DNA of 64,000 bases from the IMG/VR virus record IMGVR_UViG_2718218172_000010. One strand, 5' to 3'. This stretch comes from a virus (taxonomy: Duplodnaviria > Heunggongvirae > Uroviricota > Caudoviricetes). This document shows positions 36,001 through 42,000 of this stretch, piece after piece (position 1 is the first letter of the stretch; the number at the start of each line of letters is the position of its first letter). The position numbers were made by a program.

Positions 36001-39000
36001 TCCTATAAAAGCTATCTCTCTCAGTACACTGGATTAGGTGTTAAGGAGAAAATCGATGGTTCTAATTTTGAGCTAATGAGAAAGCTAATTCAGGGCATTA
36101 TTAACCATGAAAATGGGGCCGCCGCTCGTGCTGTAAGTGGCGATGATGTGATGCGGGCGCTGGCAATGAACCGGGGGAACGTATATTCACCAAATAATGC
36201 TTCTCAGGTAATCAGGCTCGAAGTTCAACAAAAACCAGGTTCAGATATACTGGCACAACTCGCCGGAATGCAACAAATACCGGGGTAAACCATGTCACTT
36301 AATTACTTTGGACAAGCTTTCAAACTGGCGTTTGAAGTATCGCCCATTCTTTTAGTTGATGGCATAGCGTCGAAAATTCCCGGCGGGGTGATGCCGATTG
36401 CTGTTTTGACCGAAGGCCTAAGCATTGCGAATGGTCTGCTGCATGGCGAGATACGCACACGCTTGATGGCGGCATTTACCCCGATGGCGGGGACAACGTT
36501 AGTCCAGCAGGATATTTGCAACCTGAATTTCTATAACCAGGTAACGGCAGCGAATGCGACCGTCAGGAAGCCTAACCGGGTAGTCATGCAGATGATCCGT
36601 CCGGCATCAACGGAGGACGGTGGCTACACCACGAAGGGAATGACGTTCACGGCGCTGAAAATGGCGCTTGATATGCATAATCAGTATGGCGGTTGTTACA
36701 CCGTTCTGACTCCGTCGTTTATCTATACGCGTTGCCTGATGCGGTCGTTTATCGATACATCCGGTTTCTCTGAGCAGAACAAGCAAGTGCAGCATACCTG
36801 GCAGATTGAATTTGAGCAACCATTGTCATCTGTCGAACAAACAGTAAAGACGCTGGCGAGCGTTCTGGATAAATTTGATAAAGGGATGCAGTCAGACGGG
36901 CCGCTATCGTGGTCAGGTATTAAGAACCAGGTCGTGCAGGAGTTTGGTATTGGCTTATGACAACGTTAATTCCTTTCAAACCGGACGGGCGAGGTCCGTT
37001 TCAGTTCACGGCCAGAATTGGAGAATATGAAACATTCGCCCGCGTTCCGTTTAATCTGTATGCAAATCGTTACTACCTGGAACTGAAAGACAGTTCTGGC
37101 GACGTGATTGTGTACATGCCGTTGATCGCGTCACCTGACAATTACGACATCAATCTGGCGCTGCCTTGTTCACCGGGGAAACTTGTTTTTCGCGAAAGTA
37201 CGAATCAGTTTGAGGTTTCGTAATGCGTTATTACCGACTGGAAATTATTAATCCTAAAACAGGCAAGCCGCCTGTGGATAGCAATGGAAAACCCATTGGA
37301 CCTTTTGATACCAGTGAAACACCAGGATGTGGATTGCATGTCGAATTTGACTTTGAAGTAACTGGTTTGGATGTAGTCTGTTCGGGTACGATGCTGACGA
37401 TCTATGGATTACCAATTGACATGCTGAAGCAAAGCGTGAGTTTGCAGGGTTGTCTGGTCCGTATGAAAGCAGGCTTTGTTCAGGGATTACCACTGGCAAA
37501 TAAGGATCAACAGGGGGAGGTAATCTATGGTGAAATTTATCTGGCCTATGCCAACTGGATCGGTACGAACCAGACTTTGAACCTGGTAATAAATCCAAGC
37601 ATACGCAAAACCGATGACGGTAAACCTTTTTCAATTGAGGGGCAGGGGGAAGCAGGGGAAAGGGTAGGCGATGTTTTAGTCCGCGCTTTGCAAAAAGCAT
37701 ATCCCAATAAATTGATTGATTGCACAGTCAGCGACAACCTGGTTTTGCCAGAGCCGTGGACGGGAAAATATACGGAGATTGGTTCTCTGGCTATGGTCGT
37801 AAAAAACGCCTCTATTGCGATGATGCGTAATGAAAGGTATAGCGGAATCGCCATCAGTATTCTTTCCGACAGAATACGAATTTACGATAACGCGTCAGCA
37901 AAGTGGGGTGAGCCAAAAACAATTCATGCCCATGAACTGGTCGGGCAGCCGACATGGATAGCACCGTTTACCGTCAGTTTCAAATGTCCTATGAGAGGCG
38001 ATATCAGATGTGGTGATGTGGTTAAACTGCCGGAGGGGCTATATTCTGGCGCTGCGTCGATTGTGATGGCTAATACAACGGCACCCAGCGTTATCGCAAA
38101 AAATTCGACCACGTTCACCGGGAAATTTCTTGTGAAATCGGTCAGACACATTGGTTCGTATCTGACAGCTGATGGCGATGCCTGGGTGACGGTATTTGAG
38201 GCATATGCTGAGAACTGGGCGAGGGTGTAATGTCAAACGCTCAAAAATTACCGTTTCTCCGAACGCTGTCGGAGATGATGACCAGTTCTGGCAACCAGCA
38301 AGCCGAGCTTAAAGGACGCGAATTGCCCTGCCATGTTGTCGATGTCAGTGGGCAGATAGTGACCGTTCAGTTTGATATGTTGCCAGAGGGGATCAACTTT
38401 CCGCAGATAACAATCCCTGTCGCCACATTCCCGTATATTCGTTACCCGATACAGCCGGGCGATCGAGGAGTAACAATTGCCGCAGATGTATCACTGCGCG
38501 GTGTGTCCGGATTGGGAACCGGTATGGCGACGCTCTCTTACTCGATGTCACTCACTCCACTGTTTTTCGTGCCACTGGCAAACAAGGACTGGTCCGACGA
38601 AGATCCGCAAAAAATCGTTTTGTACGGTCCGGATGGCGCGATCCTCAAAACAGAGGACGGCAGTAGCTCGGTAACGGTGGCACCGGAAGAAATCAGGCTA
38701 AATTCGAAAGCTGTTTACCTCGAGGCCGAAGATATTTTCCTGAACGGGAAAATTCACCTCAACGGTCCAATCGTCCAGGACAAAGCCCAGATGAAGGATA
38801 CAACAGCTTCGCTGATTGGCCCTCTCAAGGTCGAGAAGGATGCAGTTATCAACGGTGTGAGCGCCAGCGGCCACAGCCATGATGTGACCGGCGTTCAAAG
38901 CGGCAACAGCACGATCACGTCGAAGAAACCAAATCCGGGTTAATACCGGTTCATTTCACTTTAAATTCTATCCATAAAGCGAAAGCCCCGAACTGTTGCA

Positions 39001-42000
39001 GCAGTCGGGGCTTTTTGTTTCTGACCTTGAATAAGGCAAGGAGAAGTCGTGTTTGATTTTAGCAAACTGATTCGGGAGATTCGAGTTATGGCTGAAAAAT
39101 TATCCACCTGGAAGTTTTTGCTTATTTGGTTGGTCTTTCTGATTCTGGCGTCTGGTTATTTTGTTGGCCAGATCCGATGGTGGTGAGGGCACGATGAGAA
39201 CATGGGGCCGCGTCACTGACGCGAACGGCAACAAAAAATGGGTTGCAGTAGAATCTGACACCAGCGGTGATTTCTCCTACGGCTGGCTGACGACGCTCAT
39301 TCAGACGTTAAAGCTGGGGTTGGGGGAGTCGCCGTTTTACGCGAATTACGGCATTCCTGCGCAGCAGTGCATCGTGCAGCAGATTTACCCGGACTACTAT
39401 GTGAACATGGTTCAGCAACAGTTTGCCGGGTATTTTGCATCGCTGGCAATTTCAAAGGTAGATGGGGCAGAGAACCCCACCTATAACATCGATGTTGTGT
39501 TTTTTAACGGAACCAGTTACCGGACGCAGGTTCCGGTTTGAGGCAAGTTTTCGGGTATCAATTGGGCCAGTGGCGTATTAAGAAGTTCATCGCGTGGCAT
39601 GACAATCCATCCACTTTTGCGTAGTAAGTGAATTGCCCATTCTGTGGTTATAACTGAGCCTGATTTGTGGTGCTCAATGTGGGTAACCGATCCGTTTCTG
39701 ACGCGCATGATGATGTCAACATTCAGAGGGGGTTGTGTGCTGGTAGTTTCTTCGCGTAGTTTCTTCTCGCACTCGATGAAGTATCGGCGGATCTGGCGGC
39801 CTTTTTCGTTGCGTTCGACCATAGCCAGCTCTTTGGCGGTGTCCAGGGTGAGATGGTAGTCTTTGGCTGGTCTGCCTCTACCGATTTTTTCCCGATTTTG
39901 GGAAATAATCAAAAAGTCCTGATTTTCTACGAATTCATACTCGCTGATTCGTTCGGTAATCCAAGTGGCAAAGCGTTTACCTACTTCGAGAAAGGCATGC
40001 AGATCGCGAGCGTTGCATAGAAGGATGGTTTCGTTCGAAATGGTTCCGTTGAACACGGTGATGAGTTGGGTGGTCATAGTAACCTCTTTTGGCTTTTTTC
40101 GAATTGCCACTAACGTAGTGGCGCCGGGAGGTTCGAAACGGCCCAAAAGATACCGCGGACTTATTCCCCTTTCGGGTGTTGTATTCGTCGCCCTCCCGAC
40201 ATTGATCGGGGTTGTGATCGCACATATTGCCATCACAAAAAAAGGCATAAAAAAACCAACACATTGTAGGGTGCTGGGTAATCAGCTTTTGGGGGAGGTT
40301 TCGACGCCTCATGCGTCCAATCATACTCAACTGGGCGCGGTTGTAAAGTATGAACTTGAACAGACATTAAGAATGGGTAAAATTTGTCCTCCTGTTTTAT
40401 AAGGAGATTAAGGATGTCTAAGTTAAAATTATTTGTAGTGTTTACCTTTTTATTACAAATAGGAACTGCGAATGCAGTATCTTTTGATTGCTCGAAAGCT
40501 AAATCATATTCTGAAAAGTTAATTTGCAACAACAGTGAATTATCTGAACTTGATGATAAATTAAATTCTTTATATCAAAAAGTAAAGTTAGAGAGCACTG
40601 ATAAGAAAGCTTTTAGAAAAATTGTTTCAGACTTGTGGAATGAAAGAGAGAAGTGCAAAACAGAATCATGTGTTCGACAATGGTATTCTAATGCATTCAG
40701 GGAATATTCATCTTTAAATGAAATTAATGAGAACATAATCAATGAATCAGAGAATTACGCTGAATGGTATATTGATGGTGCGCTGATAATATTACCTCCA
40801 TTGGAAGGTGTTAGTAAAAATAGATTCCTGATGTATGGCGATGATGGAACAATAGCTATTTTTATTGCTTCAAAATCTAAAGGTAATGGATTTTGCGATA
40901 ATTCAGTGCAAATTGATGGCCCATTAGAATATCCACCAATTTTGATTAATGGTGAATATTATAAAACTTATAAATCATGCTTGTATGGAAATGGTTTTAT
41001 AGTGCCAAAAACTGAAATTGGTAAAGCAGTTCTGAAAGAGTTGGTTATGAAAATGAAGCCTATAAAAATTTCTTTTGGAGACGGCGATGAATTTAACTAT
41101 CCTCCATCAAATGTAAAAAGAATGCTTGAGAGGGTGGAAAAAATGAAACAGGCAAAATAAGTTAACTTAAAACCGCTTCGGCGGTTTTTATATAGGGGAT
41201 ATATGTCAGAAATACCAATTACTATGACCAGTGCGGGTGCGCAGCCTACGCCACCCAATGATTTGCTCGCGAATCTTATCACCAGAGTTGCTGAAAAAGT
41301 ACCTGGATATACAGCCAACCTTCCGGCAGGACTTATTACAGACCTTGCCAGCACGGCAGTAGGGGCGCTGGCATTAATAGACCAGGCGCGGGTGGACCTT
41401 ATTAACTCTGTAAGCCCATACGGCGCGAATATTCCGTTACTGATGCAACTCGGAAACATATATGGAGCACAGAAGGGATTAAGTACAAATACGGCGGTAT
41501 ACGTGGTGTTTGAGGCGTTACCGGGGTTTGGTATCCCTAAAGGATTTGTGGTTGGTGACGGTAACTACCAGTATGCAGTTTCCCGCGATACGGTGGTTCC
41601 GGAAAGTGGGCAGACTGAACCAGTCTACTGTGTGGCCACTACGTCAGGCTCATGGGCTGTACCGGAAGGGACCGTGACGCAGGTCATTACATCAGTACCA
41701 AAAGACCAGCCTGTAAAATGCACGAACCTAACCGCAGGGATGCCAGGTCAGGAGGCGCAAACGTGGGCATCTTACCGCGCCGAAGTCATGGAGTCCGGCA
41801 TGTTTGGTGTGCAGGGAACACCGGATTGCTTTAAAGCGATGCTCAAATCAGTAAACGGTGTGCGAGAAAACCTGATTTCTTTTCGGCAGTCGTCGCTGGG
41901 GAAATGGGTTGCGGTTGTTGGTGGCGGTGATCCGTATGATGTGGCTTATGCGATTTACAAATCTGTACCGGATATTTCGAAACTGACCAACGATGTAAGC

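Follow-up and report, generated by a model that had tools for sequence, protein, structure and literature searches.

The window analysed here is one strand of 64,000 nucleotides (nt) of DNA from a tailed virus (Caudoviricetes; IMG/VR record IMGVR_UViG_2718218172_000010), and the segment under study is the interval 38982-41190, which an initial annotation had described as a single moron island. As that annotation stated, the segment interrupts a plus-strand tail operon, at its baseplate genes. It is flanked on the left by the gene for a P2 gpV-like baseplate spike of 237 amino acids (aa) (38230-38943, plus strand; weak match to TIGR01644, phage_P2_V) and on the right by the gene for a baseplate J/gp47-like wedge protein (41203-42429, plus strand; Pfam Baseplate_J, 32 bits; phrog_6). 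Between these flanks lie, in order, a hairpin terminator (terminator 1), a small gene for a membrane peptide (orf45), a gene for a 115-aa protein, a minus-strand antirepressor gene (ant) preceded by a structured RNA of the sRNA-Xcc1 family, and an AT-rich gene for an LprI-like protein followed by a second terminator (terminator 2). A core baseplate gene, two accessory slots and a conserved antirepressor module under RNA control make up the segment, and only its last ~850 bp are a moron; as a whole it is probably an expanded hotspot of four units that lies within the baseplate operon of a Rac-type prophage with a contractile tail.

The same tail module was found in phage Rac-SA53 (94% identity), in Actinobacillus phage vB_Apl-pPE4 (98.5%) and in about 90 Escherichia coli genomes, and the distance from the start of the spike gene to the end of the baseplate J gene varied among its carriers from 3422 to 6173 bp. 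Fourteen annotated E. coli-type relatives were inspected gene by gene, and a common skeleton was present in 14/14: spike, slot A, the 348-bp gene for the 115-aa protein, slot B, the minus-strand antirepressor gene, slot C and baseplate J. Junctions of homology were placed by pairwise BLAST and all fell at gene boundaries, at 39041/39076 to 39194 for slot A, at 39517-39531 for slot B and from 40311-40398 to 41201-41203 for slot C, the start codon of baseplate J being the exact point where homology with all relatives resumes. Elsewhere slot C is occupied by unrelated genes on either strand, and slot B of TUM9812 holds a YafO toxin pair. Four compact distant relatives (Arsenophonus, Erwinia and two metagenome contigs) all lacked the terminator, the antirepressor gene and the cargo (4/4). 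In two different prophages (L008 1476-2466 and L140 1140-2098) the insert in slot B is a YafO-family toxin gene with an upstream partner, and its place is precisely the gap from the stop codon of the 115-aa gene to that of the antirepressor gene. As a separate observation, the record PP818812.1 ('Actinobacillus phage vB_Apl-pPE4'), attributed to Actinobacillus pleuropneumoniae, shared 98.5% identity with the present E. coli Rac-type prophage along 7 kb, which suggests an E. coli origin of the record or misassignment of its host.

The 115-aa gene (39194-39541, plus strand) belongs to a family of 719 protein clusters (90% identity) across Enterobacterales, all of 114-116 aa, and was present in every one of the 14 E. 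coli-type relatives. In the compact relatives its start overlaps the spike stop codon by 4 nt (3/4) or lies 39 nt after it (the fourth), and baseplate J follows 0-120 nt after its end. The spike homologues of relatives carry the RefSeq label 'phage baseplate protein', and distant relatives couple the spike directly to the 115-aa gene. The tail is contractile (sheath gene matching phrog_205, E = 6e-54), and the gene is universally present in the spike-to-J interval of this tail. The 115-aa ORF (open reading frame), counted as cargo in the initial annotation, is thus universal in related tail operons and almost certainly a core tail (baseplate) gene; universal conservation with a structural role had been named in that annotation as grounds for refuting the island. 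The predicted fold of the protein comes closest to the gp25/TssE sheath initiators, with weak matches to six members of the gp25/gpW/TssE family. This likeness, and a gene placed between those of the spike and the J-type wedge, make the product a probable gp25/gpW/TssE-like sheath initiator. It resembles gp25, P2 gpW, Mu gp46 and TssE in size, in its place between spike and J wedge, in universal presence within the module, in belonging to a contractile tail and in these weak fold matches. It differs from gp25, P2 gpW and TssE in giving no family match at the sequence level: Pfam returned no family at E <= 10 save a chance match to DUF3888 (GPW_gp25 was not matched), and sequence searches of the PDB with the protein and with its family profile returned no match. 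In annotation, this 'hypothetical' gene is to be entered with the baseplate core and not scored among the cargo.

On the opposite strand, the antirepressor gene reported in the initial annotation was identified with confidence: ant (39517-40077, minus strand, 186 aa) matched AntA, the AntA/AntB antirepressor family PF08346, with 99 bits against a gathering score of 27 (E = 2.3e-28), as well as PHROG anti-repressor families. It is convergent with the 115-aa gene, with a 25-bp overlap. An antirepressor gene stands in that place in all E. coli-type relatives, of the AntA type or, at locus L140, of the Bro-N type, and some copies are truncated. An extended ant ORF of 243 aa from an ATG at 40248 was rejected; it runs through the RNA element, has no Shine-Dalgarno sequence, and homologues start with MTTQLI.

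The structured RNA upstream of ant, which the initial annotation had missed, is an sRNA-Xcc1 element (RF02221; 40115-40200, minus strand) that matched the Rfam model over its full length (1-87/87) at 72.5 bits, the gathering score being 53 (E = 1.5e-12), and ends 38 nt 5' of the ant start codon. Such an element was found 5' of every intact ant in ten relatives and of the Bro-N antirepressor gene in L140, giving RF02221 matches above the gathering score in 11 related loci. Only three Rfam matches in the whole window exceeded their gathering scores, namely sRNA-Xcc1, RalA and sok, and no further sRNA-Xcc1, C4 or isrK element above the gathering score was present in the window, including the surroundings of a second antirepressor-type gene at 19924-20493. 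The RalA antitoxin RNA (215 bits; 1557-1735) lies beside ralR and the sok antitoxin RNA (122 bits; 14744-14919) beside hokD.

The element and its surroundings contain two pairs of complementary sites. The translation-initiation region of ant (40083-40103, minus strand) carries an a2-like site, UUCGAAA (40103-40097), and a b2-like site, CCAAAAGA (40092-40085), the latter overlapping the ant Shine-Dalgarno sequence AGAGG (40087-40083). The loop of hairpin 2 of the element (b', UCUUUUGG, 40150-40143) is a perfect 8-nt complement of b2, and the junction region (a', UUUCGAA, 40138-40132) is a perfect 7-nt complement of a2. Farther upstream on the same strand, a second set of sites complementary to a' and b' (40286-40304) consists of a1-like UCGAAAC (40304-40298) and b1-like CCCAAAAG (40293-40286), which may act as decoys. 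A hairpin followed by U7 (40246-40277, minus strand; -9.1 kcal/mol, z = -2.45) was the top terminator-like match of the scan; it would end a leader RNA of about 65 nt bearing a1/b1 and is a putative positional analogue of the IsrK/P1 leader terminator. Between it and the RNA element lies an imperfect palindrome, GTGATGGCAATATGTGCGATCAC (40214-40236), which forms a hairpin in the leader fold and could be a protein operator, as Op51 in P1, or a mere RNA hairpin. The promoter-like site of the leader, TTTACA-16-TATGAT (40320-40347, minus strand), agrees with the consensus at 10/12 positions and is the best such site in an 8-kb region.

The pairing of RNA and target was examined for covariation in phage contigs fetched by the invariant core AATACAANACCCGAAAGGGGAA, which gave 55-57 unique elements. 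Position-restricted windows were used, and swapped pairs served as the control; a first complementarity test with long windows was confounded by the shared UUUCGAA junction and was dropped in favour of these. When the second hairpin was compared with the 24 nt 5' of the downstream start codon, complementarity of at least 6 nt was seen in 52/55 cognate pairs and 17% of swapped pairs, and of at least 7 nt in 71% and 5.9%, respectively (55 elements). The junction paired with its downstream site over at least 6 nt in 54/55 cognate pairs (swapped, 26%), and for the second hairpin and the upstream region complementarity reached 7 nt or more in 77% of the cognate pairs, compared with 10% of the swapped ones (57 unique elements). 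Over all pairing tests at 7 nt or more, the range was 63-77% for cognate and 5-10% for swapped pairs, with 63-71% against 5-6% in the tests on the side of the ribosome-binding site (RBS). The matching loop strings were diverse (44 distinct, in 32 classes without a shared 6-mer), and the target mostly ended 7-11 nt 5' of the start codon, that is, on the Shine-Dalgarno sequence. The genes downstream of the elements encoded AntA, KilA-N, Bro-N, P22_AR_N, ORF6N or Rha N-domains, often together with P22_AR_C. Such covariation between an RNA loop and the neighbouring RBS reads as the signature of c4-type control. Because the loop and junction pairings covary with the ant RBS and the upstream sites, the antirepressor module is regarded as an immI-type immunity region, and the structured RNA upstream of ant places the antirepressor in an immunity circuit rather than among conversion genes.

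The closest known system is the immI region (c4-icd-ant) of P1/P7. The P1 record NC_005856 annotates c4 RNA, a2/b2 targets before icd-ant and a1/b1 upstream, and Rfam holds the corresponding families C4 (RF01695) and c4-a1b1 (RF03163). In both systems an RNA of about 80 nt precedes an antirepressor gene and has a closing stem and two hairpins, together with a 3' junction that is single-stranded and a tail of CACC; in the Rfam alignments of C4 and sRNA-Xcc1 the first hairpin has a tetraloop and the second a variable loop. In P1, too, b' is the second loop and a' the junction, these are complementary to b2 and a2, and a1/b1 and a hairpin with a U-run lie upstream in the same order as here. The module differs from P1 immI in belonging to another sequence family, in having no icd-like leader ORF, so that b2 would mask the ant RBS directly, in the spacing of a2 and b2 (4 nt here and ~22 in P1) and in its setting, which is a baseplate operon in a lambdoid (Rac-type) prophage; RNA processing and action in trans are putative here. 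The Gifsy-1 locus isrK-orf45-anrP (PMC4825925) likewise has an antirepressor gene 3' of a short terminated leader RNA, with an inactive read-through mRNA modulated by short-RNA pairing. It differs in that no match to the isrK model was obtained here, in that the short RNA there activates via an upstream ORF, and in that a c4-like element here lies between leader and antirepressor gene. The placement of the module is shared with P22. There, the second immunity region immI (mnt-arc-ant, with sar RNA) lies among late structural genes and is controlled in part by a small RNA. The antirepressor-bearing second immunity region amid late structural genes is thus common to both, whereas P22 has the repressors Mnt and Arc and a true antisense sar RNA, and no arc or mnt genes are present here.

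A possible, though on balance unlikely, alternative is that the sRNA-Xcc1 element is purely a cis-acting leader switch that hides the ant RBS, and not a processed, trans-acting RNA of the c4 type. The minimum-energy fold of the full leader agrees with it, as b':b2 and a':a2 are paired intramolecularly (-81.7 kcal/mol, z = -3.6), and so does the distance of merely 38 nt between element and start codon. Hartmann et al. reportedly described, in 1995, the processing of P1 c4 by RNase P. The present element mirrors, in its conserved closing stem, its GCCAC tail at the 3' end and the duplication of the a1/b1 sites, P1 c4, which is processed and trans-acting (NC_005856 annotation), and this argues against a leader acting only in cis, while the Gifsy-1 isrK locus, which works via a translationally inactive read-through mRNA (PMC4825925), speaks for it. 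The cis and trans models cannot be separated by sequence alone and are not exclusive.

Terminator 1, with which the leftward transcript would end, is a G+C-rich hairpin with U-rich runs on both strands (38977-39020). On the plus strand it folds at -24.8 kcal/mol (z = -5.0; 0/200 shuffles match) and is followed by UUUUUGUUU; the minus strand folds equally well (-23.2 kcal/mol, z = -3.4), and A-runs and U-runs flank both strands. It was found at the same place in 14/14 E. coli-type relatives, with compensatory changes in the stem (AAAGCCCCG...CGGGGCUUU in place of AAAACCCCG...CGGGGUUUU; GCCCCG/CGGGGC to ACCCCG/CGGGGT). The stem reads CCCCGG...CCGGGG in STEC005, and the loop varies freely among relatives. 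Terminator 1 and ant were both present in the 14/14 expanded relatives and both absent from the 4/4 compact ones, and no second minus-strand terminator was found between the ant stop codon and terminator 1. This co-occurrence, together with the lack of another minus-strand terminator, indicates that terminator 1 is most likely a bidirectional terminator whose chief role would be to keep leftward transcription of ant from continuing, in antisense, through the tail genes. Terminator 1 and the ant module are conserved parts of the phage lineage and not cargo specific to this prophage. In the Rfam scan the sar model gave a weak, sub-threshold match to terminator 1 (21.9 bits).

Only 28 nt separate terminator 1 from the start of orf45, a gap that leaves no room for a promoter, so that orf45 and the 115-aa gene must be transcribed by read-through. 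The gene orf45 (39049-39186, plus strand) has a GTG start with an AAGGAG Shine-Dalgarno sequence and encodes a single-pass membrane peptide of 45 aa that matched phrog_6632 over 45/45 residues (E = 2e-28) and is annotated as rac58 in Rac-SA53. The membrane peptide ORF of the initial annotation is thus present, at a length of 45 rather than 32 aa; the ATG start giving 32 aa is less likely than the GTG at 39049, whose Shine-Dalgarno sequence and 45-aa product agree with phrog_6632 and rac58. Nine nucleotide differences in orf45 among four relatives are all synonymous, and other relatives have in slot A one to four other small transmembrane peptides (45-70 aa, one hydrophobic segment; paralogous or unrelated) or an added Rha gene. 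Judged by these comparisons, orf45 is an accessory gene of the variable slot A. Tandem arrays of peptides in this slot (loci L007 765-1603, L014 765-1461 and L016 765-1218) include some orf45 paralogues with a shared ...NWKFLLIW...IRW(W/R) tail, and none of the array peptides is annotated in RefSeq.

The cargo of slot C is a gene with an AAGGAG Shine-Dalgarno sequence (40414-41160, plus strand) for a two-domain protein of 248 aa, predicted to be exported. Its G+C content is 30.7% (0.307), against 48-52% in the neighbouring genes, and at 80% coverage or more it was found in only 12/5426 E. coli genomes. A promoter-like site, TTGAAC-16-TAAAAT (40356-40383, plus strand; 9/12 consensus positions), lies inside the replaceable segment, back to back with that of ant. 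Terminator 2 (41169-41193, plus strand; hairpin 41169-41188) has an 8-bp stem and a UUCG loop (-10.3 kcal/mol, z = -2.05; 8/200 shuffles match), is followed by UUAUAU and ends 14 nt before baseplate J; its fold is modest when taken alone. Among the relatives it was present in 4/4 with the LprI-like gene and 0/10 without, and it was kept in a variant with a swapped C-domain. Hairpin terminators are therefore present at both ends of the segment, as first proposed. A simple consensus terminator scan listed neither; in our reading, the stem of terminator 1 is bulged and that of terminator 2 absorbs the T-run. Since the interval 40350-41195, and no more of the segment, is replaced among collinear relatives and has a deviant G+C content, its own terminator and a promoter-like site, it alone qualifies as a moron by these features. 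It resembles the lambdoid morons, as defined by Hendrix and Juhala, in being an extra unit between conserved late genes with deviant G+C content, a promoter-like site, its own terminator and a present/absent distribution, and differs in its uncharacterised cargo family and in the position of the slot beside an immunity module. HK97 gp15, encoded by a moron in the tail operon, is an exclusion protein of the inner membrane, whereas the slot C cargo looks periplasmic.

The N-terminus of the cargo protein is signal-like (MSKLKLFVVFTFLLQIGTANA), with a Sec-type signal sequence, read from the sequence, ending ANA|VS. An AlphaFold model (AF2; mean predicted local distance difference test, pLDDT, 82.8) showed a helical N-domain (about residues 22-105; helical bundle 25-105) and a beta-rich C-domain (about residues 115-248) with pLDDT > 90 over most of the latter. 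The residues C26, C38, C81 and C86 were invariant in six homologues of the N-domain. The N-domain is 70% identical to that of a 356-aa slot C protein in ETEC1703, the C-terminal part of which is unrelated, and it recurs, joined to further C-domains, in Yersinia, Klebsiella, Bordetella and T4-like phages. In myophages of Yersinia and Klebsiella, N-domain homologues lie between baseplate and tail-fibre genes (L147 1438-2070 and L148 1438-2130). A Bordetella phage homologue (L149 1456-2181) follows directly 3' of a gene annotated as an Xre-family regulator, shares its strand, and has an OB-fold (tRNA_anti-like) C-domain. For the C-domain of the cargo, 19 matches at E <= 1e-3 were obtained among 1.8 billion representatives, the majority being stand-alone proteins of ~153-165 aa with a signal peptide; the closest (41% identity) is encoded in the same slot C, beside a Bro-N antirepressor gene with an sRNA-Xcc1 element. 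The swapping of C-domains behind a common N-domain, and the occurrence of the C-domain alone in slot C, suggest that the specific function resides in the C-domain, for which no match was found in Pfam, PADLOC or the PDB. PDB searches with the whole protein and with its family profile gave nothing usable, and a word-indexed homologue search returned only its own cluster for the full protein and four near-identical entries for the N-domain. Slot C cargo genes of other relatives have a low G+C content (0.27-0.37) and encode signal peptides in most cases, and exported proteins therefore appear to be the theme of this slot. PADLOC gave no match for three proteins of the window or for seven cargo proteins encoded in slot C of relatives, nor did Pfam for ten cargo proteins from slots B and C of relatives.

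The RefSeq name of the cargo protein is 'lysozyme inhibitor LprI family protein', and on this view it would shield the lysogen from host lysozyme. The initial description of an AT-rich gene for a secreted protein of the DUF1311/LprI type agrees with the base composition, the signal-like N-terminus and the four-cysteine N-terminal motif, and does not extend to a significant family match: the N-domain scored 16 bits against a cutoff of 22 on PF07007 (LprI/DUF1311; E = 0.016), residues 26-66 aligning with model positions 1-47 of 106, and PF07007 was below threshold in all six homologues tested (sub-threshold matches in 3/6, best E = 0.0087). It shares with M. tuberculosis LprI and Salmonella ScwA the export, the four cysteines and a helical domain of about 80 aa, and differs in the sub-threshold Pfam score, in a domain shorter than the model and in the addition of a large, unrelated, beta-rich C-domain. 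ScwA, an LprI-domain protein that is low in G+C and periplasmic and has two disulfides, does not contribute to resistance against lysozyme (PMC7933661), and the joining of the N-domain to unrelated C-domains in different phages also speaks against an inhibitor. A lysozyme inhibitor is therefore an unlikely and unsupported assignment, resting as it does on a sub-threshold N-terminal motif. In T4, Spackle offers an analogy for protection against the lytic transglycosylase of incoming tails. With low confidence, the cargo is proposed to be a periplasmic protective or exclusion factor against a cell-wall-directed attack on the lysogen envelope; possible sources of such an attack are secreted toxins and the lytic transglycosylase that arriving tails of the same phage type carry. 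DUF1311 proteins have also been discussed as immunity proteins against periplasm-acting toxins of the type VI secretion system (PMC12135965).

The analysis shows gene content, patterns of conservation and replacement, the family of the RNA and complementarity that covaries; from this arrangement we infer promoter use, the direction of regulation, RNA processing and expression in the lysogen as follows. The late transcript, driven by a Q-like antiterminator, would read through the internal terminators and make orf45 and the 115-aa protein. The back-to-back promoters at ~40320-40383 would start two transcription units, which the two terminators would insulate outward. The leftward unit would be the immI-type module, with the a1/b1 decoys, the hairpin and U7, the c4-like sRNA-Xcc1 RNA and ant in this order, and its transcripts would end at terminator 1. 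Pairing of b' in the loop of hairpin 2 and of a' in the 3' junction with a2/b2 over the ant Shine-Dalgarno sequence would turn ant translation off, either in cis or through a processed RNA in trans, and a leader bearing a1/b1 could compete for the pairing with a' and b'. The rightward unit would be a classic moron, from which the exported two-domain protein would be made in the lysogen, with a stop at terminator 2.

Several findings weigh against this interpretation. The C4 model (RF01695, clan CL00128) gave no match at E <= 1 in 38500-41700 and the sRNA-Xcc1 model none on P1 c4 at E <= 10. As neither covariance model detects the RNA of the other, the likeness to C4 is architectural and not a demonstrated homology, and since Rfam, moreover, places sRNA-Xcc1 in no clan, the element is called c4-like in its presumed mechanism and not a member of the C4 family. 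Both promoter calls are consensus matches only, and such sites, including that at 40356-40383, were not enriched over shuffles. Relatives of the Rac-SA53 type lose homology at ~40311, and the proposed ant promoter is thus not common to all relatives. The minus-strand U-tract of terminator 1 is poorer here (UUUCGCUUUAU), and for the cargo protein neither structure nor family comparisons gave an informative match.

It is very unlikely that the whole of 38982-41190 is a single, independently transcribed lysogenic-conversion island with four ORFs that are all cargo. Such an island would account for hairpin terminators at both ends, for the absence of the block, save the 115-aa gene, from the compact Arsenophonus, Erwinia and metagenome relatives, and for an opposite-strand gene and an AT-rich gene within it. 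It conflicts with the universal 115-aa ORF, which keeps its place between spike and J in relatives that have no other insertion there, with the lack of fit for any promoter in the 28 nt between terminator 1 and orf45, with three separate recombination slots whose junctions are at gene boundaries, and with terminator 2, which moves only with the last gene. What holds of the moron island is its right-hand part (~40350-41195), where an AT-rich gene with its own terminator shows an indel or replacement pattern; the rest is not one cassette. The comparison with related prophages that had been proposed as a check for an indel thus gave a divided result, in which the slot C gene is replaced and the 115-aa gene, terminator 1 and the ant module are conserved. 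As a moron the unit is ordinary; the added value of the locus lies in the putative c4-like action of sRNA-Xcc1-type RNAs on adjacent antirepressor genes and in the modular family of exported cargo.

Existing papers treat sRNA-Xcc1 as a virulence-linked, trans-acting small RNA (PMC2996969; PMC12189769), and no statement linking it to c4 or antirepressor control was found in the literature searched; one paper mentions sRNA-Xcc1 upstream of an ORF6N gene in APSE phages. Action in trans on host, virulence-related mRNAs, with an incidental ant neighbourhood, follows the view taken of the family in Xanthomonas and Xylella (PMC2996969; PMC12189769; Chen et al. 2011 cited therein) and is a highly improbable explanation of the present element: the variable loops track the RBS of the adjacent gene across 32 unrelated sequence classes, and the downstream genes are almost always of the antirepressor type. 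In Xylella De Donno, C4, isrK and sRNA-Xcc1 RNAs occur within 400 bp on one strand, and Temecula1 carries five sRNA-Xcc1 copies ~385 nt apart (PMC12189769); arrays of the phage immunity type would explain either arrangement better than small RNAs directed at the host. The tail-operon antirepressor would belong to a second immunity region, controlled by RNA as in P1 immI, with the same RNA class before many kinds of antirepressor gene, and this gives a testable function to an Rfam family that is now read as a host-directed or even cross-kingdom small RNA. We judge the chances even that sRNA-Xcc1 is a second widespread class of c4-type immunity RNA, each copy tuned to the RBS of its own antirepressor gene, in a unit that drags along an adjacent slot of polymorphic, exported, envelope-protecting proteins. 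Slot C gathers AT-rich exported proteins in livestock-associated E. coli, one family of which is modular (a shared four-cysteine N-domain with swapped C-domains), and these proteins are candidates for exclusion or envelope-protection factors.

That the LprI-like protein is a virion or tail-assembly component, as a same-strand gene inside the baseplate operon that would be co-transcribed late might suggest, is scarcely credible for a gene of 31% GC with a Sec-type signal sequence. Of ~90 tail modules that are close relatives, ~12 have the gene, and in the others unrelated genes, in part on the opposite strand, take its place.

With regard to the wider context, the segment was 100% identical to a Rac-type prophage of the porcine E. 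coli strains cq9, U90 and UMNF18. The RefSeq annotation of cq9 shows a complete Rac-type prophage with intR/xisR, ralR, recET and a RacR-type immunity region, with lysis, terminase and head genes, and with a tail module that runs to the fibres at ~47.5 kb and is followed by uspF and ompN. The Q-like antiterminator gene (16469-17008) was identified by its PHROG match (phrog_753, E = 2.5e-77), a PDB search having given no match. The late operon has further strong plus-strand terminators, one directly behind the Q-like gene (17089-17118), one at 19750-19771 and one behind the capsid gene (29441-29459), which fits antiterminated late transcription. Upstream of the spike, the tail module encodes a tape-measure protein (34228-36288) with a lytic transglycosylase (SLT) domain at about residues 493-668, proteins of 222 and 88 aa, and the baseplate hub (37223-38230); a 208-aa protein and then the fibres are encoded 3' of baseplate J, and a Pam3_gp18-family neighbour was noted in the tail module of a distant relative.

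A two-gene cassette of the AB5 toxin type (17399-18617; a scabin-related ADP-ribosyltransferase and a subtilase-family B subunit, according to RefSeq labels) is placed between the Q-like antiterminator gene with its tR'-like terminator (17089-17118) and the holin gene, which is the position of stx in Stx phages. The second antirepressor-type gene (19924-20493; phrog_524, E = 2e-108) lies inside the lysis cassette. The gene at 24251-25687 (478 aa), directly 3' of the large terminase gene, is named 'anti-CBASS protein Acb1 family' in RefSeq and matched the portal family phrog_146 (E = 4e-74), and the label looks misleading. Masked runs of exactly 100 N occur at 44123-44222, within the tail-fibre gene at 43036-44391, and at 61223-61322, in the chromosomal flank.

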